From an uncultured Bacteroidales bacterium (GTDB lineage: Bacteria > Bacteroidota > Bacteroidia > Bacteroidales > JAFGXI01), in the NCBI GenBank assembly GCA_947311115.1, contig CAMZKE010000029.1, positions 10,385 to 74,384 on the forward strand: 64,000 bases of DNA, read 5' to 3'. The translations under genes were made by a program, and so were the position numbers. The notes beneath the pieces were generated by a model, which worked only from the letters and a program-made list of their open reading frames with translations, was not told the origin of the DNA and ran no database searches. This document shows positions 1,130 to 45,273 of this stretch, piece by piece; the stretch's first letter is position 1, and each line of letters opens with the position of its first letter.

Positions 1130-1160
1130 AAAAAGCCGAAGTTGATACTTCAGCTTTTAC
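1130..1160. terminator. Hairpin between convergent genes (bidirectional terminator candidate)
   Basis: AGCCGAAGT-TGAT-ACTTCAGCT stem (one mismatch) flanked by an A-run and a T-run, between the stops at 1069 (+) and 1185 (-). Confidence 0.5.
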
Positions 1161-1184: not shown

Positions 1185-3005
1185 TTATTCGTGACCAAGA
1201 AGTAACTTAGAAATACCTTTAACAGCAGCATAACCATCAGCAATAGCAGAAATAGCATCGGCTGTCTTGTTTACAGCATCACCACCGGCAAATACTTTAG
1301 GGTCTCCTGTTTGGTTAAATTCATTTACAACAATCATCATACCTCGCTTAATTTCAATTTTGTCTTTAAAGCTTTCCGGTAACCATGAGTAATCAGCTTC
1401 CTGACCAATAGCTCCAATTACTGTATCACATTCAAAAATTTCTTCAGAACCTTCAATTGCAACAGGTCTTGGACGACCTCCTTTGTCATCTGCTACCATT
1501 TCGGCACGTAAAAATTCAACACCGGCAACTTTACCATCTGCACCTTTAATAATTTTGGTAGGAATAGTTTGAGGATCAATTCTAACACCTTCTTCTTGAG
1601 CTCCAATAATTTCTTCCCAATCGGCAGGCATATCTTCTACTCTACGTCTGTAAAGAATAACTACTTCTGCACCCAAACGGGCTGATACTCTTGCTCCATC
1701 AATAGCAACATTACCGCCACCAAATACTGCAACTTTTTTACCAACATCGTATTTATCGCCACGGTTAATAATATCAAGGAAATCAACAGCAGGAATTGAA
1801 CCCTGAATTTCTTCATTTTCCATACCTAGAGTCCAAGCTTTTTGGAAACCAATACCAACAAAAATTGCGTCGAAAGCTGTGTGCATTTCTTCAAAAGTAA
1901 TATCTTTTCCAACAGTGGTATTGTAATTAATTTTAACACCAATGCTTTCCATATACTCAACTTGTTTATCAACACTTTCCATAGGGAATCGGTATTTTGG
2001 AATACCGTAAACTGTCATACCTCCGGCTTTTGCTTTAGCTTCAAAAATAGTAACATCAAATCCACGTAAAGCAAGGTAATAACCGGCTGTTAAGCCCGAA
2101 GGGCCAGCTCCAATAATACCAACTTTTTTTCCATTTGGTTCAGCAATAACTGGATTTAATATTTCTTTAATTTTTGCGGCAGTTGGTGCTGTTTCTGTAG
2201 CATATCGTTTTAACCAGCGTATTGATACTGCACCTTTGTCGTTAGGGTCGTTTTCAACTCCACGATGAGTAAGAGCACAAACAGTTTCGCATTGGCGAGT
2301 ACAAACCTTTCCACACATTTCAGGGAATGGGTTATTATCATAAATAATACGTAATGCATCTTCATCGTTTCCACTAGCAATAGCATTAATATATTCAGGA
2401 ATGTGCATTGTATCAGGACATACATTTGTACAAAGTCCACAAGAAATACAACGTTGAGCTTCTGCACGTGCTTCTTCTTCATTATAGCCAAGAACAACTT
2501 CTGCAAACGATTTTACACGTTCGCTACCTTCAAGTTCACGCATTGGAACTCTGTTGTACATTGATAATGAGAATTCTGTTTCTGAAGTAAACGATATGTC
2601 ATTTTTTCCTTCAGGATTATCAACTCCCGGTGTCCAAAGAAATGCATTTGCATCAGGAGTAACATAAATATAATCTTTTGTTAAGTTTAATGAACCGGTA
2701 GGGCATACCTCAACGCATAAAGCACACCAACAACAACGACCGTTATCAACACGAGGACGTAACCCACTATCACCACGCGAATGCTCTACACCCTCAATAT
2801 TTATCATATCTATAGCATCGTTTTGGCAAATAGTTGAACAGTTTCCACAACCAATACATACTTGTAAATCGTTATAGTGTAAACCACGATAACGGTCGGC
2901 AGTTTTCTTAGTTTCAAAAGGGTAGTTAATAGTATGAGGTTTTTTCCCCAACTGTTTAACAGCTCCTAATGGTTGTAACATTCCTTTTAAATCAAAAAAG
3001 CTCAT
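1185..3005 (-). CDS. NuoI/MbxN-type 2x[4Fe-4S] ferredoxin fused to GltD/SudA-like NAD(P)H-dependent FAD oxidoreductase
   Basis: 'CIGCGNCSTIC' and 'CCWCALCVEVCP' (NuoI-like). 'CISCGLCTNVCP' and 'CGKVCTRQCETVC' (GltD-type Fe-S). 'GIIGAGPSGLTAGYYL' (FAD) and 'VFGGGNVAIDGA' (NAD(P)H) Rossmann motifs. Last gene of the mrp/mbx-like operon. Confidence 0.85.
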   Translation of the reverse strand: MSFFDLKGMLQPLGAVKQLGKKPHTINYPFETKKTADRYRGLHYNDLQVCIGCGNCSTICQNDAIDMINIEGVEHSRGDSGLRPRVDNGRCCWCALCVEVCPTGSLNLTKDYIYVTPDANAFLWTPGVDNPEGKNDISFTSETEFSLSMYNRVPMRELEGSERVKSFAEVVLGYNEEEARAEAQRCISCGLCTNVCPDTMHIPEYINAIASGNDEDALRIIYDNNPFPEMCGKVCTRQCETVCALTHRGVENDPNDKGAVSIRWLKRYATETAPTAAKIKEILNPVIAEPNGKKVGIIGAGPSGLTAGYYLALRGFDVTIFEAKAKAGGMTVYGIPKYRFPMESVDKQVEYMESIGVKINYNTTVGKDITFEEMHTAFDAIFVGIGFQKAWTLGMENEEIQGSIPAVDFLDIINRGDKYDVGKKVAVFGGGNVAIDGARVSARLGAEVVILYRRRVEDMPADWEEIIGAQEEGVRIDPQTIPTKIIKGADGKVAGVEFLRAEMVADDKGGRPRPVAIEGSEEIFECDTVIGAIGQEADYSWLPESFKDKIEIKRGMMIVVNEFNQTGDPKVFAGGDAVNKTADAISAIADGYAAVKGISKLLLGHE

Positions 3006-3104
3006 CTTTTTTATTTTTTATTTTTTATTTATTAATTATTATTGAAAAAAATACGACATATATTATATCAATAATAAATATAAAATAATAATTAATAAAT
3101 TAAA

Positions 3105-4211
3105 TTATCTTTCCATTTCCGGAGGACAAACGCCCATCGAGTTCAAAATAAATGAAACATCGGCTATATTTTGTCCCGGTAATATTTTTTCTAATACTGT
3201 AATGCCGTTAGTGTAAGCAGCACCTTTTACGTGTACTCTACGAGGTTTGTTAGAACCGTCACTAACTACATAGAATCCAACTTCTCCACGAACCGACTCT
3301 GTTTTGGTCCAAGCCTCACCGGCAGGAACAGTCCATTTCATAGGGTTTGGTACTTTATTATAAAATTCGCCTTCAGGCATTTTTTCTAATGCTTGACGAA
3401 TAATATTAATCGATTGGCGTGCTTCTTCTTGACGAACTAATGCGCGTGCCCAAACATCGCCACCTTCTTGAGTAGGTACAATAAAATCTAATTTATCGTA
3501 AGCACAATATGGTTCGTCAATACGAACATCGTGCTTAATGCCTGTTCCTCTAAGTGGTGCTCCAACAACTCCCCATTCAATAGCTTTATCTTTTGGTACA
3601 ATACCAACGCCTTGAGCTCTTTTTTGGAAAATTGTATTATCAAACATTATTTTGTTATATTCGTCAAGACGTTTCTCAATGTAATCCATTGTTTTAAGAG
3701 CTTTGTCTTTCCAACCTTTTGGTAAGTCTCTACGAACTCCTCCCGGCCAAATATACATATGGTAAATTCTACCACCTGTTAGCTCTTCAAATAAATCAAG
3801 AATGTAGTTTCTGTCTCCAACTGACCATTGTCCAGTTAGGTACAAGCCTGCCGAACCTGATTGACCTGCGTACCATAGCATAAATGATTGTAAGCGAGCA
3901 AGTTCCATTACTATTGTGCGTATGTATTCTGCTCTTTCCGGAACTTCTCTGTTTTCAAGCTCTTCAACAGCTCTTGCATATGTAAGCTCCATTGGGTCAG
4001 GCTCAGGTACACAAAATCTACATAAAATTGTAAATGTTTGTAACCAATTACGTCGTTCAATTAATTTCTCGAAAGCACGGTGAAGGTATCCTACGTGAGT
4101 TTCTGCTCTCACAACAGTATCACCTGTAACTTTTAATTTAATCATCATATTCCCTGTAATACCAGGGTGTTGAGGACCTAAATACAGTGTGGTTTCTTTT
4201 TCTCGTACCAT
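3105..4211 (-). CDS. NuoD / group-4 [NiFe]-hydrogenase large-subunit-like protein (MbxL-like)
   Basis: 'GYLHRAFEKLIE' (HRGxEK block). 'LCRFC' at the N-terminal CxxC position. C-terminus 'GVCPPEMER'. Start abuts the stop of the upstream NuoC-like gene at 4211. Confidence 0.85.
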   Translation of the reverse strand: MVREKETTLYLGPQHPGITGNMMIKLKVTGDTVVRAETHVGYLHRAFEKLIERRNWLQTFTILCRFCVPEPDPMELTYARAVEELENREVPERAEYIRTIVMELARLQSFMLWYAGQSGSAGLYLTGQWSVGDRNYILDLFEELTGGRIYHMYIWPGGVRRDLPKGWKDKALKTMDYIEKRLDEYNKIMFDNTIFQKRAQGVGIVPKDKAIEWGVVGAPLRGTGIKHDVRIDEPYCAYDKLDFIVPTQEGGDVWARALVRQEEARQSINIIRQALEKMPEGEFYNKVPNPMKWTVPAGEAWTKTESVRGEVGFYVVSDGSNKPRRVHVKGAAYTNGITVLEKILPGQNIADVSFILNSMGVCPPEMER

Positions 4212-4774
4212 TACTCTCTTGAATATTTTTTAGCGAAATCAGGAATTACTTCTCCGCTTTGTTTTGTTAATTCTTCTCTTACATCTTTTGCATCTTCACG
4301 TCCGGGACGTTGGTAAAATGTTTTTTCAGCATAGGCGTGAGTATCAAAATCTCTACGCATAGGAGGCATTTCGTCCCAATCTTCTAATGCAAAATCTTGA
4401 CGGCCAATTAATCCGGGAAACTGAATACCGTACATTTCACGCATTTCGCGTTCGTATGTATTTGCTTGGTCCCATATGCTATCAATGTTTTCCATTTCTG
4501 CATTTTCTCTATCGATAAAAGTTTTAAGCATAATGGTAACTTTTTCAGTAGGAGACCATATAATATAATTTAGTTCAAATTTACCATCTTCTATACGGTC
4601 AACAACCGACATATGGTTTAAATGAATATATCCTTGTTGATTTTTACAGAATAATAAGATACTTGAAACAATATCTTTATTAGCCGTAATCATCACTCGT
4701 TTTTCTCTAGCAATATGCCCTTCAACATTGAAGGCTACTTTTATTGCTTCGAGAATTTTATTTTCTTTTTCCAT
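4211..4774 (-). CDS. NuoC / 30-kDa-subunit-like protein (MbxK-like)
   Basis: 'EREMREMYGIQFPG' block typical of NuoC/HycE-N. Sits between the NuoB-like and NuoD-like genes. Confidence 0.8.
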   Translation of the reverse strand: MEKENKILEAIKVAFNVEGHIAREKRVMITANKDIVSSILLFCKNQQGYIHLNHMSVVDRIEDGKFELNYIIWSPTEKVTIMLKTFIDRENAEMENIDSIWDQANTYEREMREMYGIQFPGLIGRQDFALEDWDEMPPMRRDFDTHAYAEKTFYQRPGREDAKDVREELTKQSGEVIPDFAKKYSRE

Positions 4775-4852
4775 ACTCTATAAATTCTAAACTTTGAATT
4801 CTAAATTTTAAATTAATTTATATAATTTTAAATTCGTAATTCATAATTTATT

Positions 4853-5401
4853 TTACCAGTTATAATCCGGCATACGCCAATTTTTAATTATCTTCTTTTG
4901 ATTGGCTCTGTACCACTCAAGATTTTCTTTATATTTTGCTGCATTATTTGCAGTTCCTTCAGCAATTTGTTTTTGTAGTTGAACAAAACCTGAAATTACA
5001 GCTTCAGGACGAGGCATACAGCCATTAATATATACATCAACCGGAATATATCTGTCTAATGCATTGATAGTGTTGTAACTATCGTAATACATACCTCCGT
5101 TAATAGTACACGAACCAAAACCAATTACATATTTGGGGTCTTGCATTTGCTCGTAAACTCTAATTACACGTTTTAAAGTTTTTGTAGCTAAATAACCTGT
5201 AATTAATAATACATCAGCTTGACGAGGAGTTGCGGCACCTCTAATACCAAAACGCTCTGCATCGTAACGAGATGTCATTGTAGCAGGAATTTCGATAGCA
5301 CCACAACCTGTGCCATAAGCCATAACAAAAAGTGAGTGTTTTCTACTCCAATTTTGTATGTATTCTACTATTGTTTGTTTATCTTTATTATTTGATGTCA
5401 T
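4853..5401 (-). CDS. NuoB / hydrogenase small-subunit-like protein (MbxJ-like)
   Basis: Blocks 'GCGAIE', 'GFGSCTINGG' and 'NGCMPRPE' match the NuoB/PSST layout. Only three Cys in the whole protein. Confidence 0.85.
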   Translation of the reverse strand: MTSNNKDKQTIVEYIQNWSRKHSLFVMAYGTGCGAIEIPATMTSRYDAERFGIRGAATPRQADVLLITGYLATKTLKRVIRVYEQMQDPKYVIGFGSCTINGGMYYDSYNTINALDRYIPVDVYINGCMPRPEAVISGFVQLQKQIAEGTANNAAKYKENLEWYRANQKKIIKNWRMPDYNW

Positions 5402-5413
5402 AGTTAATAAGAT

Positions 5414-6352
5414 TTAAAAAATAGCCCAAATTACAGCGATTACACCTAAGGCTGTAGGCCATCCCCAAAAATATCTGATTGCTTGTTCTGTTCTGTATCG
5501 AGGGCTTATCCAACCGTAAAATACAGGAACCATATAAAGCGAAAATGTTTTTAATAATAAAATTCCTAATCCCATGATAGTAGCTAAAATACCGGTTCCG
5601 AAACCGGCACCACCCATAAATAAATCAACATAAAGGGTTAATTTAATAAATGCGAAGATAGAGCCTCCACTCATCATTGTTCCAAGATATTTACCTCCAA
5701 ACTCAGAAACAGGACCTGATGCTAATTCAGCAGGAGCACCAACAATATCGAAAGGAGAGTATCGAAACATTCCTAAAGATGCAAATAAAGCTGCTAAAAA
5801 TGCAAATGGGTTTGCAAACATCATCCAAGTACCTGTTTGGGCTTGAATATCCATAATGTCTTGAATTGATGTAGTTTTATATTGAACCATTAAAGCAACT
5901 AACGCTAAAACGAAAGGGATTTCAAATCCAACCATTTGGCTGAGTCCACGAGTTACACCAATAGCCGAGTTTGGGTTACCTGTTTGTCCTGCACCAAGAG
6001 CCATACCTAACGAGCCAAAAACCATCATATAAAGAAGGAAAATTAAATCGCCGTGAAAAGTAAGGTTTGGAAACCATAAATTGCCATTTAAAATTGGAAT
6101 AAACATTAGCACTGTACCTGCAGAAATTATAATCCATACAGGAGCCATATGTCCCATAAATCCGTGAGCAATATTTGTTTTCTTACTTTGAAGTTTTAAT
6201 AAATCTAAAAAGTTCTGCCATATAACAGGACCTCGTCTGTTTTGAACTCTTGCGGTAAGTTTTCTAACAATACCTCCGTAAGTCATACCTACTGTAAAGG
6301 CAAGTATAACTGTAAGTAATGCTCCAATAATTTTTATACCTAAATCTTCCAT
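5414..6352 (-). CDS. NuoH / HycD-like membrane subunit (MbxM-like)
   Basis: Polytopic. N-terminal loop 'RKLTARVQNRRGP' resembles the NuoH 'RKxxAxxQxRxGP' block. Sits between the antiporter-like and NuoB-like genes. Confidence 0.75.
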   Translation of the reverse strand: MEDLGIKIIGALLTVILAFTVGMTYGGIVRKLTARVQNRRGPVIWQNFLDLLKLQSKKTNIAHGFMGHMAPVWIIISAGTVLMFIPILNGNLWFPNLTFHGDLIFLLYMMVFGSLGMALGAGQTGNPNSAIGVTRGLSQMVGFEIPFVLALVALMVQYKTTSIQDIMDIQAQTGTWMMFANPFAFLAALFASLGMFRYSPFDIVGAPAELASGPVSEFGGKYLGTMMSGGSIFAFIKLTLYVDLFMGGAGFGTGILATIMGLGILLLKTFSLYMVPVFYGWISPRYRTEQAIRYFWGWPTALGVIAVIWAIF

Positions 6353-6361
6353 ATTTTATTA

Positions 6362-8236
6362 TTATACAAATAAAGTATCTTTAAATAACAACATTAATAC
6401 AAGGAATATAACTACAAACAATGCATAAGTTTGTCCGTTTCCAGTGTATATTTTTCTGGTAAAGTTAAAAAGAGCTTCTAAGCCATTACCAAGTTCGTTC
6501 CAAATTTTATTCATACTACGCTTGTACATAGGTGCTGCAGCTCTAACAAACGGTTGGAAAAAATTTATTTGGAAAGTTAAGTTTTCGTTTTCGTAAGGAA
6601 TTTCACCTGATGTTGAAATGTCTTTTGTTCCAACATAACGTGTGCCTTTTAATCCTTTTAGTGTGATGAATGCAAATATTGATACAAATACAACACCTAT
6701 TGTAATTCCAAGATATGTAAGGTTCATTTCGTTACCCCACACATTGTTAAGTACCGACATGTTCCAAGTTACATCTTTAAAACCAATAAATTCCATTGCG
6801 GTTGCTATTGGGGAGAATATTAATCCCGGAAAAGCACCTGTAATAACTAATAATATGGCTAAAACTAACATTGGAATTATCATTGTAATAGGAGCTTCTT
6901 TTACCTGCTCTGTTTCTTTTTCTTCTTGTCCTAAAAATAATCCGAAAAGGAAACGGTAACTGTATAAGAATGCAGCTGTACTTGAGAAGAAAATTACTAT
7001 TACTAAAAAGTATGAATTGCTTTCTGTTATTAAGGCTTCGTAAAGCATCCATTTACCGACAAAACCACCTAATGGAGGAATACCTGCAAGTGCAATAATT
7101 GATATTAAAGCTGTAAGAAATGTGAAAGGCATTTTTCTGATTAAACCGGATATTTTAGTCATATCGGTAGTTCCTGCCTGACGTTCAACGGCTCCAACAA
7201 CCATAAATAAAGCTCCTTTAAATATACCGTGAACAACAGCTAAAAATAGAGCCGCCATAACACCAAGTTTTGTACCGGTTGCTAAACCTACTGTAATATA
7301 TCCAAGCTGAGCGATTGATGAGTATGCTAAAAGTTTTTTAGCATCGTCTTGAATAAGTGCGTAGAGTGTGGCAATTACAGCTGTAATACCACCTAACCAA
7401 CCAATTGTTTGTTGAAGATAAATAACGCTGAATCCACTAAAAAAGTTAGTTAAGCTACCGCTACGGTCAGCAGTAAACATATGACCAAGTACTAATCCCA
7501 TACCTAAAACTCCCATTTTACTCATTGCTCCGGAGAATATAACTGTAAAGGATGTTGGTGCATTATTATATGCTCCCGGTGCCCATACGTGAAGTGGCAT
7601 TGTTGCAGCTTTTACTCCAAATCCTATAAGTAGAAGAATAGGTATGTATATATTATCAATAAAATTGAATGCTCCTGCATTAATTGCATCAGAAATAAGG
7701 AAAGTATCGTATTGTCCTTTTATCATTACAATAGCAGTAAGCATTGAGTATGCTCCAATTGCACTAAATATCATATATTTAATACCAATTTTTTTAACAT
7801 TTTTACCTGAGTATATAATAATAAGGTAAGATGCCCAAGTCATTATTTCCCAAAAAATGAAGAATGAAATAAAATCGTTGGCGAAAATAATACCTGTCAT
7901 ACCTGCAATAACAAGCACAAAGTTGAAATAAAAACCACTTGTGCGTTCTTTGTTTTGCATATAGGATATTGAATATAACGAAGCTAAAGTACCTAAACCT
8001 AAAACTATTATTCCGAATAAATATCCGTAACTGTTAAGTCCCCACTGTAATTGAATTCCACCAAGCGAAAACTCAATAAAACTGCCCATTTCAATTTGTG
8101 TAAAAAATAGGGCAGAAGCTGCTGCTATTGATAAAAATGCAACAGTACCGCTAATAATTGATGATATTTTGCCAAGAACAAACGATAGTCCTGCACCTGC
8201 AAAAAGAATCAATAATATTAAAAAGAAACTATTCAT
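6362..8236 (-). CDS. MrpA/D-NuoL-type proton-conducting antiporter-like subunit (MbxH'-like)
   Basis: 'GVKAATMPLHVWAPGAY' and 'LLAYSSIAQLGY' blocks. More than 14 hydrophobic segments. Confidence 0.8.
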   Translation of the reverse strand: MNSFFLILLILFAGAGLSFVLGKISSIISGTVAFLSIAAASALFFTQIEMGSFIEFSLGGIQLQWGLNSYGYLFGIIVLGLGTLASLYSISYMQNKERTSGFYFNFVLVIAGMTGIIFANDFISFFIFWEIMTWASYLIIIYSGKNVKKIGIKYMIFSAIGAYSMLTAIVMIKGQYDTFLISDAINAGAFNFIDNIYIPILLLIGFGVKAATMPLHVWAPGAYNNAPTSFTVIFSGAMSKMGVLGMGLVLGHMFTADRSGSLTNFFSGFSVIYLQQTIGWLGGITAVIATLYALIQDDAKKLLAYSSIAQLGYITVGLATGTKLGVMAALFLAVVHGIFKGALFMVVGAVERQAGTTDMTKISGLIRKMPFTFLTALISIIALAGIPPLGGFVGKWMLYEALITESNSYFLVIVIFFSSTAAFLYSYRFLFGLFLGQEEKETEQVKEAPITMIIPMLVLAILLVITGAFPGLIFSPIATAMEFIGFKDVTWNMSVLNNVWGNEMNLTYLGITIGVVFVSIFAFITLKGLKGTRYVGTKDISTSGEIPYENENLTFQINFFQPFVRAAAPMYKRSMNKIWNELGNGLEALFNFTRKIYTGNGQTYALFVVIFLVLMLLFKDTLFV

Positions 8237-8242
8237 ATCTGT

Positions 8243-9733
8243 TTAGTTTATATTTTGTGTTAATACCGCTTGAATATATGATGCTTTATCTAATAACATA
8301 TCAGCAGCGTTGTTTAAAAAGTGAGTTATTATATCAGGATAAACTCCAACAACAATTATTGTAGCTCCTAATATTAACATAGAAACCATTGCATTAATTG
8401 ATGGTTTTTGTACTTTAATTTCTTCGTCTTCTTGTTTGCCGTAGTATAATGTGCTTACAACTCTGAAATAATAAATTATTTCTATTATACTAACTGCTAA
8501 TATTGCCATTATTAATAAAAGCATATTTTGGTCGGCAGCAGCAGTAAGTACATATAGTTTGCTCCAAAATCCTGAGAAAGGAGGTAGTCCAACTATTGCA
8601 AATGCACCTAAGCCAAATAGTAATGATACAATTGGAAGTTTTTTTCCTAATCCGGCTAAAGCCGATATTTTTTTGTTTAAAGAGTTATAGGTTAAATAAC
8701 TTCCACTCATAAATAACAAACTTTTGATAACTGCGTGGTTAAACATTAAGAATAATGCTCCAATAATTGCAGTTTTTGTGCCAATGCCAAAAGCAATAAG
8801 TACAAAACCCATTTGACCAATACTTGAATAAGCAAGCATTCGTTTAAGGTTTGTTTGTGCTACTGCAGCTGTTTCGGCAATTATCATTGTTATTAAACCA
8901 CCGTATATTAAGAAATCGTAAGCTCCGTGAATATCGAATAGAGTGAAAATAACTCTTATTAATGCGTAAACACCAGCTTTAACAACTATTCCTGCAAAGG
9001 CTGCTCCAATTGGTCCGGGAGATTGAGAGTAAGCATCAGGAGCCCATCCGTTTAACGGGAACATTTCTGCCTCAATACCAAAGCCTACTAAAAATAATAC
9101 TAAAATTGTAGCTCTTAATGGAGTTGGTATTAAATGTGCATTTTGAGCAATTTCTGCCATATTTAATGTGCCAAGCTGTGTGTAAAGAATCATTACGGCA
9201 AGCAATATCATTACTGATGCGAAGCTACCTATTAATAAATATTTAAATCCTGCTTCAGCTCCATCTCTTTCGCGGTAAAACGATGTAAGCGAATATGCTG
9301 TAATGGCTGTTATCTCCATAAATACAAATAGGTTGAAAATATCACCCGTAAGTACAATGCCAATTGCACCGGTAACCATCATCATTTGTAATATATGATA
9401 TTTTTGAGATTGAGATTGTTCAATTTTCTTAAAATTATAACTGTAAAGCCAAATTAAGAAGCCAACAACCGACATTAGACTTGCTAAAAATCCACTGAAA
9501 GGAGTAAACATAAGGTTAATTCCCCAAGGGGCAGACCAACCTGCAATTTTTTCAGATATTACACCTACTTCGCTAACTTGCATCATTAATACAATTGAAA
9601 CGAAAACAGAGTATAACAATACAATTCCCGGTACTATTCTGGCAAGTTCTTTATGAATGTACTTGCTTAATAATGGAATTGTAAAAGCCGCTAATAACGG
9701 CACCGCAATATAATGAACCGGACTTATTACCAT
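8243..9733 (-). CDS. MrpD/NuoN-type antiporter-like subunit (MbxH-like)
   Basis: 'GIEAEMFPLNGWAPDAY' and 'RMLAYSSIGQMGF' blocks. Overlaps the upstream gene by 7 nt. Confidence 0.85.
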   Translation of the reverse strand: MVISPVHYIAVPLLAAFTIPLLSKYIHKELARIVPGIVLLYSVFVSIVLMMQVSEVGVISEKIAGWSAPWGINLMFTPFSGFLASLMSVVGFLIWLYSYNFKKIEQSQSQKYHILQMMMVTGAIGIVLTGDIFNLFVFMEITAITAYSLTSFYRERDGAEAGFKYLLIGSFASVMILLAVMILYTQLGTLNMAEIAQNAHLIPTPLRATILVLFLVGFGIEAEMFPLNGWAPDAYSQSPGPIGAAFAGIVVKAGVYALIRVIFTLFDIHGAYDFLIYGGLITMIIAETAAVAQTNLKRMLAYSSIGQMGFVLIAFGIGTKTAIIGALFLMFNHAVIKSLLFMSGSYLTYNSLNKKISALAGLGKKLPIVSLLFGLGAFAIVGLPPFSGFWSKLYVLTAAADQNMLLLIMAILAVSIIEIIYYFRVVSTLYYGKQEDEEIKVQKPSINAMVSMLILGATIIVVGVYPDIITHFLNNAADMLLDKASYIQAVLTQNIN

Positions 9734-10107
9734 TTTAAAGATTTTATTTGATCAATTCTTGCTGTATTATGATGTTTATATAAACGTATCACTAATGAAA
9801 GGGCAACTGCTGTTACTGCAAAACCAATAACAATTGCTGTAAGTACCAATGCTTGTGGTACAGGGTCAACCATTTTATTAACTGCATCTTCGTTTCCCGG
9901 AGAAAAAATTGGGGCAGTTCCGCCTTTAATATATCCAATAGCCACAAATAATAAATGTACACCGGCATCAATTATAGATAAACCGATTACAATTTTTATT
10001 AGGTGTTTTTTTATAAGAACTGCATACAGACCTATTAATATAAGTGCAATTGCAGAACCATAAACACCTGTTGTTATTATACTATTATATTGTTCGAAAT
10101 TTTGCAT
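9727..10107 (-). CDS. MrpC/NuoK-like subunit (MbxG-like)
   Basis: Three TM segments. 'PVPQALVLTAIVIGFAVTA' block of MnhC/NuoK. Confidence 0.8.
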   Translation of the reverse strand: MQNFEQYNSIITTGVYGSAIALILIGLYAVLIKKHLIKIVIGLSIIDAGVHLLFVAIGYIKGGTAPIFSPGNEDAVNKMVDPVPQALVLTAIVIGFAVTAVALSLVIRLYKHHNTARIDQIKSLKW

Positions 10108-10826
10108 TATTTTTTTGGTTTAATGTTCAACAATATATCTAAAACTCCTGTTAATTCGGCTGCAACTTTAAATCCAACAGCTATATATATAATAGGAATT
10201 ACACCACCACTTATTAAATTATTAAGTTCTCCTGCAGGTAAAACATTTTCTAAGAAAGTTCCTCCTGTTAAAAGTCCCCATAAACCAATGCTTACAAATG
10301 TAATTCCTGCAAGACTTTCAACCCAATTAAGCATTGTGTGTCCGGCTTTAAAGTTTTTGTAAGATATTAGCATAAGTAGAAAACCTGTTGCTATAATTGC
10401 TCCTCCTTGGAAACCTCCACCTGGTGTTAAGTGTCCGTGAATAAAAACATAAATTCCTAATAGAGCAATTAAAGGAAATAATACTCTTGAGCCTGTTTGC
10501 ATAAGTGATGATGAAGGTTTGTTTATTCTTTCAATTTCTTCTTCATCTTCTTTTCTGCGGAAAAGTATGCTTCCTAAACCTGTTGTTGCAAGGAAAAGAA
10601 CTGTTACTTCGCCAAGTGTATCAAAACCTCTATAATTTACAACAATTGCAGTTACTGTGTTTGCAACAGATGTTTTTTCTACGGTGTTATTTAAGTAGTA
10701 CCCCGCAACGGTTTGTTCGTCTTGCGGATTTCCTATTCGGTTTTCTCCGAAAGGAATTAAGTTAAATGTATCGGTTAAAAAATAACCAACAATAACTAAT
10801 AATACCAATACAAGTACTTTCTTCAT
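10107..10826 (-). CDS. MnhB/MrpB-like subunit (MbxF-like)
   Basis: 'VTAIVVNYRGFDTLGE' signature of the MnhB domain. Polytopic. Confidence 0.8.
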   Translation of the reverse strand: MKKVLVLVLLVIVGYFLTDTFNLIPFGENRIGNPQDEQTVAGYYLNNTVEKTSVANTVTAIVVNYRGFDTLGEVTVLFLATTGLGSILFRRKEDEEEIERINKPSSSLMQTGSRVLFPLIALLGIYVFIHGHLTPGGGFQGGAIIATGFLLMLISYKNFKAGHTMLNWVESLAGITFVSIGLWGLLTGGTFLENVLPAGELNNLISGGVIPIIYIAVGFKVAAELTGVLDILLNIKPKK

Positions 10827-10828
10827 TT

Positions 10829-11107
10829 TTAGAACTTTTCAAGATTATTATCTACTGTTTCGTCTTCGTTTCGCGAGGTATTTCTAATAGTAATTACAAA
10901 AATTATTGTCGTTAATGCAATACCAATAGCAGCTTCGGTTAAAGCAACATCGGGAGCTTGCATTAAATAAAAGAATACCGAAAGAATTAAACTTACAACA
11001 CCTGTTGAAATAACAGCTGCAAGTAAATCTTTTTGAATTACTGCATATAGTGCCGATGCAACAAGCAAAACAGCTAAAATGCTAAATATTACAACGTATG
11101 TTATCAT
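10829..11107 (-). CDS. DUF4040 / MbhD-like small membrane subunit (MbxD-like)
   Basis: 'APDVALTEAAIGIALTT' block. 92 aa, three TM segments. Confidence 0.7.
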   Translation of the reverse strand: MITYVVIFSILAVLLVASALYAVIQKDLLAAVISTGVVSLILSVFFYLMQAPDVALTEAAIGIALTTIIFVITIRNTSRNEDETVDNNLEKF

Positions 11108-11457
11108 AGTTTAACCTCCTCTTTTACTTCAATGTCTTGAACTTTTTCGTAAGCATCAACTTTTTTCTTCATTATAGGTTTTAAGCCTGCTTTGTAGGCT
11201 GCACGTGCTAAAGCGTGCGAGCTTAAAGGGTTGGCAATGCCAATAAATATTACAATAATTATTGTTTTTACCATCCAAGCCGGTTCAATAAAACCTACAC
11301 CTAAAATTGCACTCATAGCACCAATTGTGGTAGCTTTTGTTCCTGCTTGTAGTCTGTTGTACAAGTCCGGCATACGGTATATACCTAGAGCACCAAGGAA
11401 TAAAAATATTCCTCCAATAACTAAAAGTCCGTATCCAATGTATCTTAAAATCTCCAT
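11104..11457 (-). CDS. MrpG/MnhG-like subunit (MbxC-like)
   Basis: 'YRMPDLYNRLQAGTKATTIG' signature. 4-nt overlap with the downstream gene. Confidence 0.85.
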   Translation of the reverse strand: MEILRYIGYGLLVIGGIFLFLGALGIYRMPDLYNRLQAGTKATTIGAMSAILGVGFIEPAWMVKTIIIVIFIGIANPLSSHALARAAYKAGLKPIMKKKVDAYEKVQDIEVKEEVKL

Positions 11458-11714
11458 TATAATGCTTTTTCTATAAATCTTGCGATTACAATTACACCAA
11501 TAAAACCAAGAACTGCATATATAAGAGCTACATCAATGTAGATGTATCTTTTAAACATAAGTCCTAATAACACCAATGCCGCAGTTGCAATAACTGACAT
11601 TGTATCTAGTGCCACAGCTCTATCGGCTGCGGTTGGTCCTTTAACAAATCGTAAAAAACCAAGTAATAACCCTAAGGCCATTAACGATAATACTATTATG
11701 AATACTGTCTCCAT
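11457..11714 (-). CDS. MrpF/MnhF-like subunit (MbxB-like)
   Basis: 'VKGPTAADRAVALDT' signature. 85 aa, three TM segments. Confidence 0.8.
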   Translation of the reverse strand: METVFIIVLSLMALGLLLGFLRFVKGPTAADRAVALDTMSVIATAALVLLGLMFKRYIYIDVALIYAVLGFIGVIVIARFIEKAL

Positions 11715-11724
11715 ATAATAGGGT

Positions 11725-12249
11725 TTATCCGTAAATTTTTAATAAAACTTTTTCGAAAGGTTCAGCTATTTCTTTAAATGCTTCTTCCGGATTTTCTGTT
11801 GCTACATCAATCCAATGTATATACATTGTATCATCAATTACATCAATTGTAAGTGTACCAGGTGTAAGTGTGATACTGTTTGCTAAAATCATTTTAGCAA
11901 AATCGTTTGTTAGTTTAGTTTTTATTTCAACAATACCCGGATTAATAGGTAGTGCAGGGTTTATAACTCTAACAGCTACATCAAGATTTGCTTTAATAAG
12001 GGCTATTATAAAAACAAAAAAGTATTGAACCAAAAAAATAATTTTATGAGGCATCAATACTTGTAGTCCGCAGCACGAGAAGTATTTGTTGGTTAATAAA
12101 CCGAGAATTAAACTTACAAATGCTCCTGTTAAAACTTCGGCTAATTGAATATCGGCAAAAGAGCCGGGCCAAGTAAAAGCATTCCAAATAATAAACACCA
12201 TTATAAAGGTGTATAAAAATTTGCTTATAGATGATTTTCCGTCTTGCAT
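11725..12249 (-). CDS. MrpE/MnhE-like subunit (MbxA-like), first gene of operon
   Basis: 'LANSITLTPGTLTIDV' signature of MnhE. A TAnnTTTG-like box (TATTTTTG) lies about 20 nt upstream on the minus strand. Confidence 0.8.
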   Translation of the reverse strand: MQDGKSSISKFLYTFIMVFIIWNAFTWPGSFADIQLAEVLTGAFVSLILGLLTNKYFSCCGLQVLMPHKIIFLVQYFFVFIIALIKANLDVAVRVINPALPINPGIVEIKTKLTNDFAKMILANSITLTPGTLTIDVIDDTMYIHWIDVATENPEEAFKEIAEPFEKVLLKIYG

Positions 12250-12414
12250 TTTAATCTTCTTAAAATTTATACAAAAATATAATTATATACATTTTTAGTT
12301 AGGTATATATTTGTGTTTTTTAACAGATTTTTTAATTTGTTCTCTGTCTAAATAGGGGAGAGACGCAAGTGTTGGATTGTTTAAATATATTATGATTTGT
12401 TAGTAATTTAAATT

Positions 12415-15923: not shown

Positions 15924-16769
15924 ATGAGGGGGATTAAGAAGATTTATTATTTGTTTCAACAATTAGTTTTAATAAATAGAATAAATAAAAGATTAAAGAA
16001 TAAGATTGTTAGCTGTGGTTTAGATAATAACATTCCTTATGTTGAGTTATTAAATGGTTTTAAATTTTTTGGTTTTAAAAGCCAACCATATCAAAAAAAG
16101 TTATTCTTTTTGTTTAATAAAAGCATAAAACAAAAATTAAAATCGTGCCCTGATTGTATTAATATTTTATTTGATATTGATTTTAGATATTTCCCTCCAA
16201 AAACAGAAAGAGAAACTTATGATATGGGTAAGTACTATAATGTAAATAAGGGTGAGATTGTGTTGGAGCTGGGTGCATATATAGGAATGTATGCTATAAA
16301 AATGTCTGAAATTGTTGGCGTAGAAGGTAAAGTTATTGCTGTTGAGGCTATTGAAGATAATTATAGCATATTGAAAAAAAATGTTGAATCTAATTCTATT
16401 TCTAATATTATTCCAATGAATAAAGCAATTTGGAATAAAGATGAAGATATTAGTTTTTTCAGAACAGAAAATCAAGAAAATAGTGCTGTAACAGGAGTTG
16501 TTGATGAAGATAATATTATAACAGTAGAGGGAGCTACAATTGATACAATCGTTAAAAATAATAATTTATTGAGAGTTGATTTTATTAGAATTCAAGTTAA
16601 TGGAGCAGAAGTTGAAGCATTACAAGGAATGCTTGAAACTTTTAAATTGAAACCAATTGTTATGGTTACAGTTGTTTATATTAGTAAGAAAGCAGTATTG
16701 CAAATATTACAAGAAAACGGGTATGAAACAACAGAGTATAAATACTCTGTATTAGCTATCCCGAAATAA
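15924..16769 (+). CDS. FkbM-family SAM-dependent methyltransferase
   Basis: 'VLELGAYIGMYAIKMSE...VIAVEAIEDNYSILKKNV' matches the FkbM methyltransferase core. Confidence 0.7.
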   Translation: MRGIKKIYYLFQQLVLINRINKRLKNKIVSCGLDNNIPYVELLNGFKFFGFKSQPYQKKLFFLFNKSIKQKLKSCPDCINILFDIDFRYFPPKTERETYDMGKYYNVNKGEIVLELGAYIGMYAIKMSEIVGVEGKVIAVEAIEDNYSILKKNVESNSISNIIPMNKAIWNKDEDISFFRTENQENSAVTGVVDEDNIITVEGATIDTIVKNNNLLRVDFIRIQVNGAEVEALQGMLETFKLKPIVMVTVVYISKKAVLQILQENGYETTEYKYSVLAIPK

Positions 16770-16770
16770 T

Positions 16771-18261
16771 TTATTTATTTATAATTTTATTTTTTATTTT
16801 CCCAATATTTGGAAAATATTTAATAATAATAAATATTTTTTCCTTCTCTGTTTTTGAGAAAAAACCAAATACAAACAATAAAAGAGGGAAAGTTAGTAGA
16901 ATTGAACTTTTTATTACTAATCCAATCAATATAGATTCGTTATTTATATAGTATAATGAAGATGTAATAATAACACTAGATAATATTAATATAACTAATC
17001 TTTTTATTTCATAATTTACATAATACTCTCTTTGTGAATAATAATAATATAATACTAAAATTACAAAACTGCTTATTATTGATGCTATTGATGCTCCGTA
17101 AATACCGTAATTTGGTATAAGAGCAAAGTTTAAAATAAGGTTTATAACAGCACCAGTAAGTACTATAAACGAATTGTATTTAGTTTTCTTCACAAAATGT
17201 AATCCTAAAGAAAACATATAGTAAATACCTTTTATTAAAAATGTGTACGAAATAAAAGGAACTATTTTGTAAGCCTCATAATAAGCAGGGTCTTTCGATA
17301 AAAGAAGTATTATTTCTTTAGAATAAAACGAAAGAGTTAAAACCGAAAAAACAAGTACAAAAGTTAAGTATGTTAATACTTTAGCAAAGAATTCTTTTGC
17401 ACCTTCTTTATCATACATTTTGTATGCTATAGGTAAAAATCCCATTTGAAATGATTGTATAATAACAATGTTAACAATACTTGAAAGTTTATAACCTAAA
17501 TTATATATTCCAACTTCTGATAATGAATAAAAATGTTTTAATGCAAATCTATCTGCTAAAGTTAGAATCATTGTAGATATTGTTGAAAATACTAAAGGAA
17601 ACCCGTAAATAAACATTTCTTTCCCTGTTTTTATATCAAATTTAAATACAATTTGTTTTAATGTAAACGGAATTGTAACAAAAGAGAATAGAGCGCTACT
17701 AATAAGCATACTTAATACTATACCTTCAACACCAATTTGTGCATAAGCAACAAAATAAATTGCTAATACTAAATTAAGTAACAGCTTTGTTATTAGAATT
17801 ATAATGTAAAGAACTGATTTTTGTTTTAATCTTAATAAGTCAAGAATAAAGCTGTTATAAATCTCAACAAAAATGTATATTGATAAATAATAGAAGTAAA
17901 TATAAAGTTTGTCAGAATCTAGCAGTAACTCAGATAAATAACTAGCAAAAATAAAAGATGATACAACAAAAGGTATTATTAAAATACCAGAACTTAACAT
18001 TGCGGTAAATATAATTTGCTTTTTCTTATAAGTGTCACTTTCAACCGATGCCCACCTTAGCATTGCAGTAGATAGTTTAAAACTTAACACTCCAATAGAA
18101 AACTGTGCAATAGCTTCAATAATAGCAAGTAAACCATAATCAGCAGTTGTAAGGTAAGTGGTATATAATGGTAGTAAAATAAATCCCACCATTTTTATAC
18201 TTAGGTTACCTAAACTATAAATTATAGTATGTTTTGCAGTATTAAATAAATTTTTAAACAT
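16771..18261 (-). CDS. Oligosaccharide/polysaccharide flippase (Wzx-like, MOP superfamily)
   Basis: 496 aa with about 12-14 TM segments. Located in a glycosyltransferase cluster. Confidence 0.7.
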   Translation of the reverse strand: MFKNLFNTAKHTIIYSLGNLSIKMVGFILLPLYTTYLTTADYGLLAIIEAIAQFSIGVLSFKLSTAMLRWASVESDTYKKKQIIFTAMLSSGILIIPFVVSSFIFASYLSELLLDSDKLYIYFYYLSIYIFVEIYNSFILDLLRLKQKSVLYIIILITKLLLNLVLAIYFVAYAQIGVEGIVLSMLISSALFSFVTIPFTLKQIVFKFDIKTGKEMFIYGFPLVFSTISTMILTLADRFALKHFYSLSEVGIYNLGYKLSSIVNIVIIQSFQMGFLPIAYKMYDKEGAKEFFAKVLTYLTFVLVFSVLTLSFYSKEIILLLSKDPAYYEAYKIVPFISYTFLIKGIYYMFSLGLHFVKKTKYNSFIVLTGAVINLILNFALIPNYGIYGASIASIISSFVILVLYYYYSQREYYVNYEIKRLVILILSSVIITSSLYYINNESILIGLVIKSSILLTFPLLLFVFGFFSKTEKEKIFIIIKYFPNIGKIKNKIINK

Positions 18262-18265
18262 TTAT

Positions 18266-18976
18266 TTATAGTGAAATTATGTTTGCGATTTTATTGCTAA
18301 TAATTTTGTGTCCTTCTGTTGAATAATGAATCCCATCTGGATAATATTTCACCCCATCTATGTCAGAAATATCAACTTTTTTAATATCAAATTCCGATGA
18401 AAGTTTATTTATTATTTTATTATATATTTCTACATTTTTTTTTGTGCCAGGAAGTTGTTTCTCAACTCTATCTGAAGGTGTATTTATCGGAATTATTATT
18501 ATTTTAGAATTAGTTTCTTTAATAATATATTCGATAAGTATTTTATATAGATTTTTAAATTGTTTTTTATTTACCCAAGAATTTTTCCCTCTTAATTTAA
18601 CAAATATACTTCTTTTAGGTTTAACAATAATATTATAAACTGTGGCTAATAATATACTTATACTTTTTTGAGATTTAAATGTAATAATATCTGAAAACCA
18701 TTTAGGTACATCTCTTGTTGACGCATCAGGTATCCCAATATTTAAAACAATATAATCAGGATAATCAGAAATTAACTCGTCAATTCTTGGAAAGATATCT
18801 TTTAGTGTTGCTCTTGTAAAAGCTTTGTTACTAATGGTAAAACAAGTGTTAGAGTCTGTCTCAGATAACTTATCTTGTAAATATTGGCCGTAATTTTTAT
18901 TCATAGGTTCTTTCATAGGAGGGCGGACTCTAATTGCAACAGAACAACCTATTATTGAGACTTTTATATGTTTCAT
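18266..18976 (-). CDS. SGNH/GDSL-like hydrolase (esterase/acyl-modifying)
   Basis: N-terminal 'VSIIGCSVA' (block I-like), 'LNIGIPDAS', and C-terminal 'PDGIHYSTEGH' (block V DxxH). Confidence 0.5.
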   Translation of the reverse strand: MKHIKVSIIGCSVAIRVRPPMKEPMNKNYGQYLQDKLSETDSNTCFTISNKAFTRATLKDIFPRIDELISDYPDYIVLNIGIPDASTRDVPKWFSDIITFKSQKSISILLATVYNIIVKPKRSIFVKLRGKNSWVNKKQFKNLYKILIEYIIKETNSKIIIIPINTPSDRVEKQLPGTKKNVEIYNKIINKLSSEFDIKKVDISDIDGVKYYPDGIHYSTEGHKIISNKIANIISL

Positions 18977-18978
18977 AA

Positions 18979-19857
18979 TTACAGTTTGTAACCGTATTTT
19001 TGTGCTAAAGTATTACAAATATTTTTGAGTTTTGTCTTGTCAACATTATTCCAGTCTTTGTATTTTGCTACATTTCCTGAGGTTTGAATATTAGATTTTT
19101 TATTTAATCTTTTAGAAATCTTAGATTCGTTAACAGAAATCTCCATAAAACTCATAAGGTTTTTAACATTTTCTAAGTTTAATTCATTAAAATTAAACGA
19201 ATAAAATCTATTAGAATCAATATTTTGCGAGAAATTTTCAATAAAAGAATTTGTTTCATTCCATAACCACGAAATTTTTGTAATAGAATCAGAATTATGC
19301 CAATCTAAATTCATTTTATTTGTTGGAGTAATTAATTTCTGATTTAAATTACTGTCCTCTTTATACCAATTTCGTCTTAAGCCAGAGCGTACAAATTCAC
19401 CTGGATGACGATATAAATGTACAAATTTACTGTTAGGAAAAATTTCACTTAATGCGTATGCAAAAAATGTTATATGATTGTTTGTTTCAACAAATCTTTT
19501 TTCTGTTTTATATGCGTATCTTAAATGTTGTTCCCTACCTGTAAGGAAAATTTCTTTAATGAATGATAGCAGTATACTATTATCTAAATCACTATTATAC
19601 ATATTGTATGCATAGTTGTTTTGTATAGCAAAATCAGGGCGTTCAGAGTGTAATAGCATTAAGCTCTTATTGTTACTTAACAAATCTGTAAACCATTTAG
19701 TACCTGTTCTTCCTGTTGATAGAAAAAATATAGGAGTTTCTAATTTGTTAAAATTAGATGCTCTTAAATCGTATATTGTACCTTTTTTTTTGGGTTTCCC
19801 AAATTTATAGGTCCAATATATTTCTTCTATCGATATGTTTTTAAGTGTTGAAAACAT
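18979..19857 (-). CDS. Sulfotransferase-family protein
   Basis: 'LSTGRTGTKWF' resembles the 5'-PSB loop (xxGRSGTTxx). 'LYRHPGEFVRSGLRR' resembles the 3'-PB motif (RxPxDxxxS). Confidence 0.6.
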   Translation of the reverse strand: MFSTLKNISIEEIYWTYKFGKPKKKGTIYDLRASNFNKLETPIFFLSTGRTGTKWFTDLLSNNKSLMLLHSERPDFAIQNNYAYNMYNSDLDNSILLSFIKEIFLTGREQHLRYAYKTEKRFVETNNHITFFAYALSEIFPNSKFVHLYRHPGEFVRSGLRRNWYKEDSNLNQKLITPTNKMNLDWHNSDSITKISWLWNETNSFIENFSQNIDSNRFYSFNFNELNLENVKNLMSFMEISVNESKISKRLNKKSNIQTSGNVAKYKDWNNVDKTKLKNICNTLAQKYGYKL

Positions 19858-19880
19858 TGTTTCTCAAAAGTAAAGTATAT

Positions 19881-20645
19881 TTATCTATTATCAAAAAATA
19901 CAGAAATAATCATTTTAATATTTTTAAAAAACGATTGATTCCAATGTATTGGATGAGTTAGTAAGCAAACGGTTTGTTTTTGTTTATCAATCATTTTGTA
20001 GGGCGAGCCAGAGTGTTTCCATTCAAAATTTGCATAAATTGAGCTATCCGAAATATATGCATCAAACATTTTTGTAATGTTTACATCATAAGTTTCAAAT
20101 AAGATATTATGTTCTTTATAAAATTTATTGTCAATAATTACATGGTTTGGAGTGTCTAAAACTCTATTACGCTTGTCGCCATGCGAGCAAATTGTGTTAA
20201 TTTTAAAATAATATTTTTCAAATTTTTTAATTTCTTCTGATAAGTTTTGTGTACATATTTGCTTAACTTTATTGGTTATTTTTTCATTATTAATGATATT
20301 TTTTTGTTTTGCATAAGTAGCAAGTGTTTCAAAATGAAGCGAAACCTCAAAATTATTTTTGTGCATTTCATTCATTATTTTGCTGTTCATTGTTTTCCAA
20401 CGGAAATAAAATGTAGAGTTTGCTCCATAATGTTTTTCCAATTTATAAAAACTATAAGCCCCTTTTGCATCATAATCAACATCATGGCGAAGAATTAATA
20501 CTTTTTCATTAGTTTCTTTGTAATTGTTATACCAATCTATTAGCGATACTAATTTGTAGTTTTTTGCAATAGCATATTTTAGAATATTTTCATATTCATG
20601 GAGTCTGTTTTTTTGAAAAAGTTTTTTTGTAATTTTAGTTATCAT
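19881..20645 (-). CDS. Polysaccharide-deacetylase-like protein (tentative)
   Basis: 'LILRHDVDYD' and 'EVSLHFE' His/Asp motifs. Polysaccharide-locus context. Weak call. Confidence 0.4.
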   Translation of the reverse strand: MITKITKKLFQKNRLHEYENILKYAIAKNYKLVSLIDWYNNYKETNEKVLILRHDVDYDAKGAYSFYKLEKHYGANSTFYFRWKTMNSKIMNEMHKNNFEVSLHFETLATYAKQKNIINNEKITNKVKQICTQNLSEEIKKFEKYYFKINTICSHGDKRNRVLDTPNHVIIDNKFYKEHNILFETYDVNITKMFDAYISDSSIYANFEWKHSGSPYKMIDKQKQTVCLLTHPIHWNQSFFKNIKMIISVFFDNR

Positions 20646-23861: not shown

Positions 23862-23863
23862 AT

Positions 23864-43182: not shown

Positions 43183-43201
43183 AAATATTCGTAAAAAATA
43201 C

Positions 43202-43238: not shown

Positions 43239-43262
43239 TATTGAATTTTAAATTTTAATACA

Positions 43263-43742: not shown

Positions 43743-43745
43743 ATT

Positions 43746-43952: not shown

Positions 43953-43961
43953 ATCTTTGTT

Positions 43962-45253: not shown

Positions 45254-45273
45254 TACCATTTAATACAATTCGT

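Follow-up and report, generated by a model that had tools for sequence, protein, structure and literature searches.

A run of 13 co-directional genes near one end of a 64,000-nucleotide stretch of an uncultured Bacteroidales genome (GenBank assembly GCA_947311115.1, contig CAMZKE010000029.1, positions 10,385 to 74,384; the whole stretch is hereafter called the window) raises the question of which energy-converting complex these genes encode and which redox reaction that complex would couple to ion transport. The open reading frame (ORF) listing places them on the minus strand, from window position 12249 down to 1185. Our comparisons indicate that the operon is, by its predicted subunits, a complete complex of the MBS/Mbx type, the family of the sulfane-sulfur reductase of Pyrococcus furiosus, and not complex I, Mbh or a stand-alone Mrp antiporter. 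As for the reaction, we give about an even chance to an ion-translocating NAD(P)H:sulfane-sulfur oxidoreductase of the MBS family that carries an NfnB/GltD-type flavoprotein joined to its N subunit.

Family assignment and operon layout

Six of the subunits (L, J, H, H', M and the N domain) were compared with all solved structures, and the other seven were assigned by Pfam only. The top match of all six was the cognate chain of the P. furiosus MBS (6U8Y), with wide margins. The L subunit scored 344 bits with MbsL, compared to 248 with T. thermophilus Nqo4 and 148 with MbhL, and the J subunit scored 217 bits with MbsJ, compared to 146 with NdhK and 120 with MbhJ. The H subunit reached 325 bits with 6U8Y chain H (MbhH, 227; MrpD, 208), and H' reached 295 bits over residues 5-616 with the 618-residue MbsH' (MbhH, 173). 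For M the values were 172 bits with 6U8Y chain M and 81 bits with MbhM, and the fusion protein's N-terminal portion (residues 9-117) gave 82 bits with 6U8Y chain N and 52 bits with NdhI. The respective lengths in the window and in MBS are 496 and 493 residues for H, 624 and 618 for H', and 312 and 309 for M. The MBS gene order A-B-C-D-E-G-H-H'-M-J-K-L-N is matched by the window operon, whose two Proton_antipo_M genes each match their own MBS chain (H or H'), whereas MBH has one such gene. An earlier note on this DNA, made from the letters alone, had called the locus MBS/Mbx-like with two antiporter-like subunits, rather than complex I or Mbh, and this placement is borne out by the six comparisons; it had also asked whether the subunits would fall inside the Nuo or Mrp groups, and by bit score the MBS chains outranked the matches to both.

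Domains were called with Pfam and NCBIfam profiles. The 13 genes and the two flanking transcription signals are listed below in the direction of transcription, with the domains in the order in which they occur.

12272-12279, minus strand: candidate -7 promoter box of the Bacteroidota type, TATTTTTG, read from the sequence, 23 nucleotides before the first ATG
11725-12249, minus strand: mbsA-like gene (MrpE family), 174 residues; Pfam MNHE, E 2e-40
11457-11714, minus strand: mbsB-like gene (MrpF family), 85 residues; Pfam MrpF_PhaF, E 2e-18
11104-11457, minus strand: mbsC-like gene (MrpG family), 117 residues; Pfam PhaG_MnhG_YufB, E 5e-24; NCBIfam NF009314 above its cut-off
10829-11107, minus strand: mbsD-like gene (MbhD/DUF4040 family), 92 residues; Pfam MbhD, E 2e-21
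10107-10826, minus strand: mbsE-like gene (MbhE and MnhB domains), 239 residues; Pfam MnhB, E 1e-24, and MbhE, E 3e-10
9727-10107, minus strand: mbsG-like gene (MrpC/NuoK family), 126 residues; Pfam Oxidored_q2, E 3e-28
8243-9733, minus strand: mbsH-like gene for an antiporter-like subunit (Proton_antipo_M), 496 residues; 6U8Y chain H is its best solved relative; E140, K252, H333 and K337 conserved
6362-8236, minus strand: mbsH'-like gene for a second antiporter-like subunit (Proton_antipo_M) with a C-terminal extension, 624 residues; 6U8Y MbsH' is its best solved relative; E130, K240, H336 and K340 conserved
5414-6352, minus strand: mbsM-like gene for the membrane anchor (NuoH family, NADHdh), 312 residues; matches 6U8Y chain M
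4853-5401, minus strand: mbsJ-like gene (NuoB family, Oxidored_q6), 182 residues; matches 6U8Y chain J; predicted proximal [4Fe-4S] ligands C33, C98 and C128
4211-4774, minus strand: mbsK-like gene (NuoC family), 187 residues; Pfam Complex1_30kDa, E 1e-22
3105-4211, minus strand: mbsL-like gene (NuoD/[NiFe] large-subunit family, Complex1_49kDa), 368 residues; matches 6U8Y chain L; C64, C67 and C362
1185-3005, minus strand: fusion gene, 606 residues, with an MbsN-type part with two [4Fe-4S] sites and an NfnB/GltD-type module; Pfam Fer4_21, Fer4_20 and Pyr_redox_2
1131-1158, minus strand: intrinsic terminator with a 12-bp stem, a 4-nucleotide loop and a T-run, 27 nucleotides past the stop codon of the fusion gene

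Pfam E-values across the operon range from 1e-18 to 1e-78, so the domain assignments lie far beyond chance. The limits and the domain order given in the earlier note agree with both the ORF listing and Pfam, and the peptide motifs and the five start/stop overlaps that it quoted are present. Its statement that NuoE/F/G and NuoJ equivalents are lacking stands in part. No NuoE/F/G, hyp, nqr or rnf genes were found in the 64-kb window, where 38 further ORFs with 110 or more residues (of about 43) were scanned; the statement fails for NuoJ, as the mbsD-like gene has a weak match to the NCBIfam NuoJ profile (E 1e-4) and this MbhD-family gene is, on that match, a distant counterpart of NuoJ.

The five overlapping junctions lie at 4211, 9727-9733, 10107, 11104-11107 and 11457. 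Five other junctions measure 2-12 nucleotides, among them that between H' and M (9 nucleotides), and AT-rich spacers, 78 and 99 nucleotides long, make up the last two. Upstream of the first gene is an AT-rich intergenic region of 165 nucleotides (12250-12414), within which TATTTTTG is a candidate Bacteroides-type promoter box; it fits TAnnTTTG, which we take to be the consensus of Bacteroides promoters. A sigma-70 scan of the window gave 72 matches compared to 67 expected, in AT-rich DNA from a phylum that has a different promoter type. Gene 13 is followed by one strong terminator, and the gene beyond converges on it. Because of the tight junctions, the AT-rich upstream region and the terminator with its convergent neighbour, the 13 genes look like one transcription unit.

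Fused flavoprotein, active site and pump residues

The fusion protein consists of an MbsN-type part with two [4Fe-4S] sites (residues ~1-120) and an NfnB/GltD-type module (~150-606) with a Fer4_20 domain for two further [4Fe-4S] clusters, an FAD site and an NAD(P)H site. Residues 152-604 align end to end with T. maritima NfnB (4YLF_B, 286 bits) and with the large subunit of P. furiosus NfnI (281 bits). The NCBIfam profile NF010590 (PRK13984, "putative oxidoreductase") covers residues 7-602 of 606 with profile positions 9-606 of 611 (E 3.5e-186); its score of 620 bits is under the 946-bit equivalog cut-off, and the match reflects the same architecture in a more distant lineage. Relatives were collected by scanning one genome per species with the fusion protein, which yielded 80 loci, and tblastn of all 13 window proteins then gave the gene order at these loci. 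The 80 homologues conserve all eight MbsN cysteines, two four-Cys Fer4_20 motifs, the FAD motif GAGPSGLTA, and GGGNVAID followed by YRRR. By analogy with NfnB and GltD, the second Rossmann motif is probably the NAD(P)H site, and since the YRRR motif is conserved, NADPH would be a likelier donor than NADH.

The fusion of the N domain to an NfnB/GltD-type flavoprotein means that the donor is probably NAD(P)H and not ferredoxin. The earlier note had described the complex as wired to NAD(P)H, and a predicted NAD(P)H-binding flavoprotein joined to the NuoI-like subunit supports that description. The module occupies the functional place of NuoEFG, yet it is unrelated to NuoEFG.

The peripheral active site also follows the archaeal enzyme. 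In MBS, the proximal cluster is ligated only by MbsJ C28, C93 and C123, because the MbsJ loop is three residues shorter than in MBH, and MbsL keeps C85 and C385 of the four [NiFe] cysteines (PMC7684303; review PMC8165549). The window J subunit aligns without gaps to MbsJ through the cluster loop (GTGCGAIE here, TGCGGIE in MbsJ), its C33, C98 and C128 correspond to the three MbsJ ligands, and there is no fourth Cys in the loop. This three-Cys pattern is kept in most of 69 homologues, with a tandem CC in a gammaproteobacterial subset. In the L subunit, C67 and C362 correspond to MbsL C85 and C385, while E70 and E365 stand at the other two [NiFe] positions. An additional Cys64, three residues before the vestigial Cys (C64-R-F/I-C67), was present in 72/72 bacterial L subunits examined, whereas P. 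furiosus has Leu; the CxxC pair and C362 adjoin the catalytic cluster. All eight MbsN cluster cysteines are present (C50, C53, C56, C60, C91, C94, C97 and C101). The Glu and Lys of the pump axis are also kept, MbsH E138 and K250 as E140 and K252, and MbsH' E128 and K248 as E130 and K240. Of the HxxxH pair in transmembrane helix 11 (TM11), the second His and the following Lys are retained in both H and H'.

A proteobacterial sub-clade (L068-L073 and related loci) departs from this pattern, with a tandem Cys-Cys in J (GTGCCSIE, as in complex I) and with Ala and Tyr at the positions of both L cysteines. Several of its loci end with a rubrerythrin gene. The tandem J cysteines and the Ala and Tyr in L suggest a different chemistry for the gammaproteobacterial subset, and the sub-clade may be a chemically different, more complex-I-like variant.

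Proposed reaction and its alternatives

We infer the donor, acceptor, direction and coupling ion of the bacterial complex by analogy with the P. furiosus enzyme. A membrane arm derived from Mrp (A, B, C, D, E, G, H and H') would be joined through the NuoH-like anchor M to a peripheral arm formed by J, K, L and N. A hydride would pass from NAD(P)H, more likely NADPH, to the FAD, from which electrons would reach the proximal cluster in J by way of the two [4Fe-4S] clusters of the Fer4_20 domain and then the two of the MbsN-type part. At the proximal cluster, the iron that lacks a Cys ligand would reduce the S-S bond of a polysulfide or persulfide in a chamber between J, L and M. This would be linked to the pumping of protons by H and H' and, in the distal Mrp module, to an exchange between H+ and Na+.

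The energetics of this scheme call for caution. The textbook midpoint potentials of NAD(P)H and polysulfide are about -320 mV and about -260 mV, from which we calculate only ~12 kJ per two electrons, an MBH-sized yield, and yet the two-pump MBS arm is kept. Electron transfer from ferredoxin to polysulfide releases ~42 kJ per two electrons, and the MBH reaction 12 kJ (PMC8165549). A small driving force set against a large pumping arm implies a lower stoichiometry, an acceptor of higher potential, or operation near equilibrium or in reverse, which makes it a concrete and testable puzzle. Other points weigh against the proposal together with this one. The extra Cys64 near the predicted active site is unlike P. 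furiosus MBS, and the first TM11 His (MbsH H330, MbsH' H336) is Leu in the window, as it is across the bacterial clade, with an occasional Gln in H. No sulfur-metabolism genes were found outside the operon in the 64-kb window. The record titles of many carriers, which point to sulfidic caves, a sulfidic spring, cold seeps and vents, speak for the proposal, but the scan worked with peptide patterns from the query and leaned towards its close relatives, which biases this habitat signal; furthermore, the carriers include an aerobic isolate, Celeribacter neptunius (L080). Finally, our literature search found no biochemical, expression or phenotype work on any bacterial member, in agreement with the earlier note, which had held that biochemistry comes only from hyperthermophilic archaea.

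The alternative that survives best, although we consider it unlikely, is the older "Mbx" model of an energy-conserving ferredoxin:NAD(P)+ oxidoreductase, in which reduced ferredoxin is the donor, the GltD-type module reduces NAD(P)+, and ions are pumped in the manner of Rnf. This role has been assigned to Mbx-like operons in the literature (PMC4758237; bioRxiv 10.1101/322537), and a flavoprotein with an NAD(P) site is indeed fused to the very subunit that accepts ferredoxin in MBS. On the other hand, the P. furiosus Mbx itself has been re-assigned as a ferredoxin-dependent polysulfide reductase (PMC7684303, PMC8165549). Moreover, electrons going from ferredoxin to NAD(P)+ through N would skip the proximal cluster and the J/L/M chamber, where all structurally known relatives have their coupling site, and yet this site with its unusual three-Cys cluster is strictly conserved.

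A less probable possibility is that the same complex runs mainly in reverse, with the H+/Na+ gradient driving electrons uphill from sulfide, polysulfide or another weak donor to NAD(P)+ and thereby supplying reducing power. The calculated energy gap between NAD(P)H and polysulfide is small enough for the reaction to be readily reversible, and homologous operons occur in Gammaproteobacteria of the Ectothiorhodospiraceae type. However, the gammaproteobacterial versions have another active site (CC in J; Ala and Tyr in L), and those operons therefore say little about the window clade, whose Bacteroidales we would expect to be fermenters in need of electron sinks.

An alternative complex I, that is, an NAD(P)H:quinone oxidoreductase in which a GltD-type module stands in for NuoEFG, is very improbable. 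Its overall logic is similar, and NCBIfam does label the NuoB- and NuoD-like genes as Nuo subunits. Against this, T19 and V68 of the window L subunit align with H38 and Y87, which bind the quinone in T. thermophilus Nqo4, and a complex I-type quinone site is therefore lacking; the NuoB-like subunit lacks the tandem cysteines, and the scores for MBS lie far above those for any complex I. With no NuoEFG in the window, no quinone ligands and higher MBS scores, we rejected complex I as the identity of the locus.

The first seven genes have Mrp family domains, which could be read as a stand-alone Mrp Na+/H+ antiporter lying beside a separate oxidoreductase, but we see hardly any room for two adjacent, independent systems. 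The junctions are mostly overlaps or gaps of 2-12 nucleotides, a single terminator follows gene 13, and the order does not vary between phyla; the Mrp-like genes score higher with MBS chains than with Mrp chains and have the split MBS-type layout without a fused MrpA. A stand-alone Mrp with a separate enzyme was accordingly rejected on the continuous array and the MBS-type layout. Least credible of all is a membrane-bound, H2-evolving [NiFe] hydrogenase like MBH, since, although L and J are homologous to hydrogenase large and small subunits, E70 and E365 occupy two [NiFe] Cys positions, MbhL scores 148 bits versus 344 for MbsL, there are two antiporter-like subunits versus one in MBH, and the window has no hyp genes; group 4 [NiFe] hydrogenases (MBH/Ech) were rejected because only 2/4 of the L1/L2 cysteines are present.

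An NfnAB-type bifurcating transhydrogenase was also considered as the identity and fails, as only the NfnB-type module is present. The ORF scan found no NfnA-type partner in the operon or the 64-kb window, and therefore nothing points to electron bifurcation here.

A bolder version of the proposed NAD(P)H:sulfane-sulfur oxidoreductase would make the fused clade a distinct "complex I for sulfur". The three-Cys cluster and Cys64-x-x-Cys67, along with Cys362, would reduce a persulfide, polysulfide or organic disulfide, with an FMN partner of the dihydroorotate-dehydrogenase (DHOD) type in many lineages, and the chemistry would resemble that of ferredoxin:thioredoxin reductase or heterodisulfide reductase. 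We hold this to be doubtful, its chances lying between those of the ferredoxin:NAD(P)+ and the reverse-running explanations. If true, it would give the Bacteroidota, Ignavibacteriota and Calditrichota of sulfidic habitats a major source of energy and sink for NAD(P)H that has so far gone unrecognised.

Distribution, neighbouring genes and known systems

The 13-gene order was kept in every one of the 80 loci with enough flanking sequence upstream, and these span Bacteroidota, Ignavibacteriota, Calditrichota and Proteobacteria. Identities were 65-91% in Bacteroidales, Flavobacteriaceae, Lentimicrobiaceae and related metagenome-assembled genomes (MAGs), somewhat lower in Ignavibacteriota, Melioribacteraceae and Calditrichota, and 30-63% in Gammaproteobacteria, Myxococcota, a deltaproteobacterium and the isolate C. 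neptunius DSM 26471. The nearest genome is a MAG from a sulfidic cave labelled Paludibacter (83% for the fusion protein, 89% for the L subunit). An exact look-up of the window's fusion protein gave no record. The closest protein, with 94% identity, is encoded on three metagenomic contigs that have all 13 genes but other neighbours, and thus the operon acts as a self-contained unit. A search of a library clustered at 50% identity yielded mostly generic GltD-type proteins, and only ~13 clusters share the full fused length.

Base composition was also compared along the window. The operon, with a G+C content of 0.33-0.37, is the richest part of this end, and the adjacent polysaccharide-biosynthesis cluster (16000-24000) has 0.245-0.26. 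In close relatives, related operons have other neighbours, as would be expected of a module that is mobile and self-contained.

A co-directional gene for a DHOD-like FMN protein (NCBIfam NF005741, 418 bits) adjoins the operon in ~32/80 loci, for example at L060:11787-12776, and is absent from this window. The loci are L003, L005-L007, L009, L015-L017, L022, L036, L038, L039, L041, L042, L046, L049-L053, L055, L058-L061, L063-L065, L078 and L079. The gene lies either 3' of the fusion gene, usually by 8-220 nucleotides and by up to 453 in L063, or 57-76 nucleotides before the first gene; in L005-L007 it is ~2.4 kb downstream, with NfnA and NfnB genes in between. By analogy with the pairing of GltD-like and DHOD-like parts in dihydropyrimidine dehydrogenase, the protein looks like an optional 14th component. 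The intervening genes, NfnA-like (FAD, [2Fe-2S]) and NfnB-like, lie directly downstream of the operon in these three Flavobacteriaceae MAGs (L005:11863-14210, L006 and L007:11817-14160), and since such a pair makes NADPH, its position fits NADPH as the donor.

The rest of the window encodes, among others, GldH, SusC-like, DUF4835 and DUF5106 proteins, which mark the DNA as that of a member of Bacteroidota. On the plus strand at 36526-40854, a 1442-residue ORF joins a full AcrB-type RND transporter (residues 5-1032) to an outer-membrane efflux protein (OEP/TolC-like) domain (1270-1441), with a gene for an HlyD-type adaptor after it; either inner- and outer-membrane parts are unusually fused here, or a sequencing error has run two genes together. 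A metal-efflux island, also on the plus strand (42197-52911), encodes AraC- and Fur-family regulators, a cation-diffusion facilitator, a DUF302 protein, a second RND pump (1277 residues), an outer-membrane factor and a CusB-like adaptor with heavy-metal-binding domains. The window has a single Rfam match.

53061-53464, minus strand: tmRNA gene, full length; Rfam RF00023, 146 bits

Operons of this kind have been noticed before. Genome comparisons described an mbx-like operon in Thermotoga and proteobacteria in which a GltD-type flavoprotein replaces NuoI (PMC4758237), and a 13-gene Mbx cluster has been cited in the mesophilic Mesotoga, with ferredoxin:NAD(P)+ activity assumed (bioRxiv 10.1101/322537). 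The MBS review treats the archaeal enzyme alone (PMC8165549). Our literature search found no description of an MBS-type operon in Bacteroidota, and the Melioribacter and Caldithrix genome papers make no mention of the cluster. The fused architecture is thus already known from genome comparisons, and the host phylum and the breadth of the distribution are additions. The "undescribed energy-converting system" of the earlier note was an overstatement, given PMC4758237, bioRxiv 10.1101/322537, NF010590 and the dozens of public genomes that carry the same operon.

MBS is viewed as an evolutionary intermediate on the way from Mrp and [NiFe] hydrogenases to complex I, and has been studied in Thermococcales only. 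The bacterial operons are a widespread target for learning the function of MBS-type complexes outside hyperthermophilic archaea, and experiments are feasible because the carriers include the cultured C. neptunius DSM 26471 and, according to the literature, Thermotoga and Mesotoga. The function of an NADH dehydrogenase would have been attached to an MBS-like scaffold at least two times, through unrelated flavoproteins: the GltD/NfnB type here and NuoEFG in complex I. If NAD(P)H oxidation, sulfane-sulfur reduction and pumping are truly coupled, the complex would offer an energy-conserving electron sink to Bacteroidota that live by fermentation, and to their relatives, in sediments, caves and seeps that are sulfidic, and models of sulfur and carbon cycling would be affected.

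Among the known systems, the P. furiosus MBS, which is characterised by the reduction of polysulfide or dimethyl trisulfide in coupling with a Na+ gradient, shares with the window complex the 13-gene order, the two antiporter-like subunits, all eight MbsN cluster cysteines, the three-Cys proximal cluster on a shortened loop, and the two vestigial [NiFe] cysteines. They differ in that N is a free-standing, two-cluster ferredoxin acceptor in P. furiosus, whereas here it is fused to a 455-residue NfnB/GltD-type flavoprotein. In addition, the non-ligand MbsJ C25 is replaced by Gly, MbsH H330 and MbsH' H336 are replaced by Leu, and the L subunit has the extra conserved Cys64 of its CxxC motif. The host is also different, being a bacterium whose close relatives live at non-thermal sulfidic sites. 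The mbx-like operons of Thermotoga, Mesotoga and proteobacteria, of which that of Thermotoga was compared by description only, have a GltD-related flavoprotein at the same NuoI position; the differences are the host phylum and the terminal rubrerythrin gene, which the window does not have. The NfnAB/SudAB/GltD/dihydropyrimidine dehydrogenase family corresponds to the C-terminal 455 residues of the fusion protein, including both [4Fe-4S] sites and the FAD and NAD(P)H sites. The window module, however, is covalently joined to an MbsN-type domain and has no NfnA/SudB partner in the window.

Complex I has homologous H, B, C, D, I and K subunits and antiporter-like subunits, as well as an NAD(P)H-oxidising flavoprotein that feeds an Fe-S wire, and its L-shaped design would be expected for the window complex. 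The window operon nevertheless lacks NuoEFG, and its flavoprotein is of the unrelated GltD/NfnB type; it has neither the quinone ligands nor the tandem Cys of the NuoB-like subunit, and its membrane arm is of the Mrp type, with MrpE/F/G-like subunits. The P. furiosus MBH (6CFW) likewise has a membrane arm that derives from Mrp, and its J, K, L, M and N subunits are homologous, whereas the window complex has no [NiFe] site, has two antiporter-like subunits instead of one, and gives far lower scores with MBH. Finally, stand-alone Mrp antiporters are encoded by seven genes, mrpA-G, with a fused MrpA and no redox subunits, whereas the window operon has the split layout of MBS, contiguous with M-J-K-L-N.

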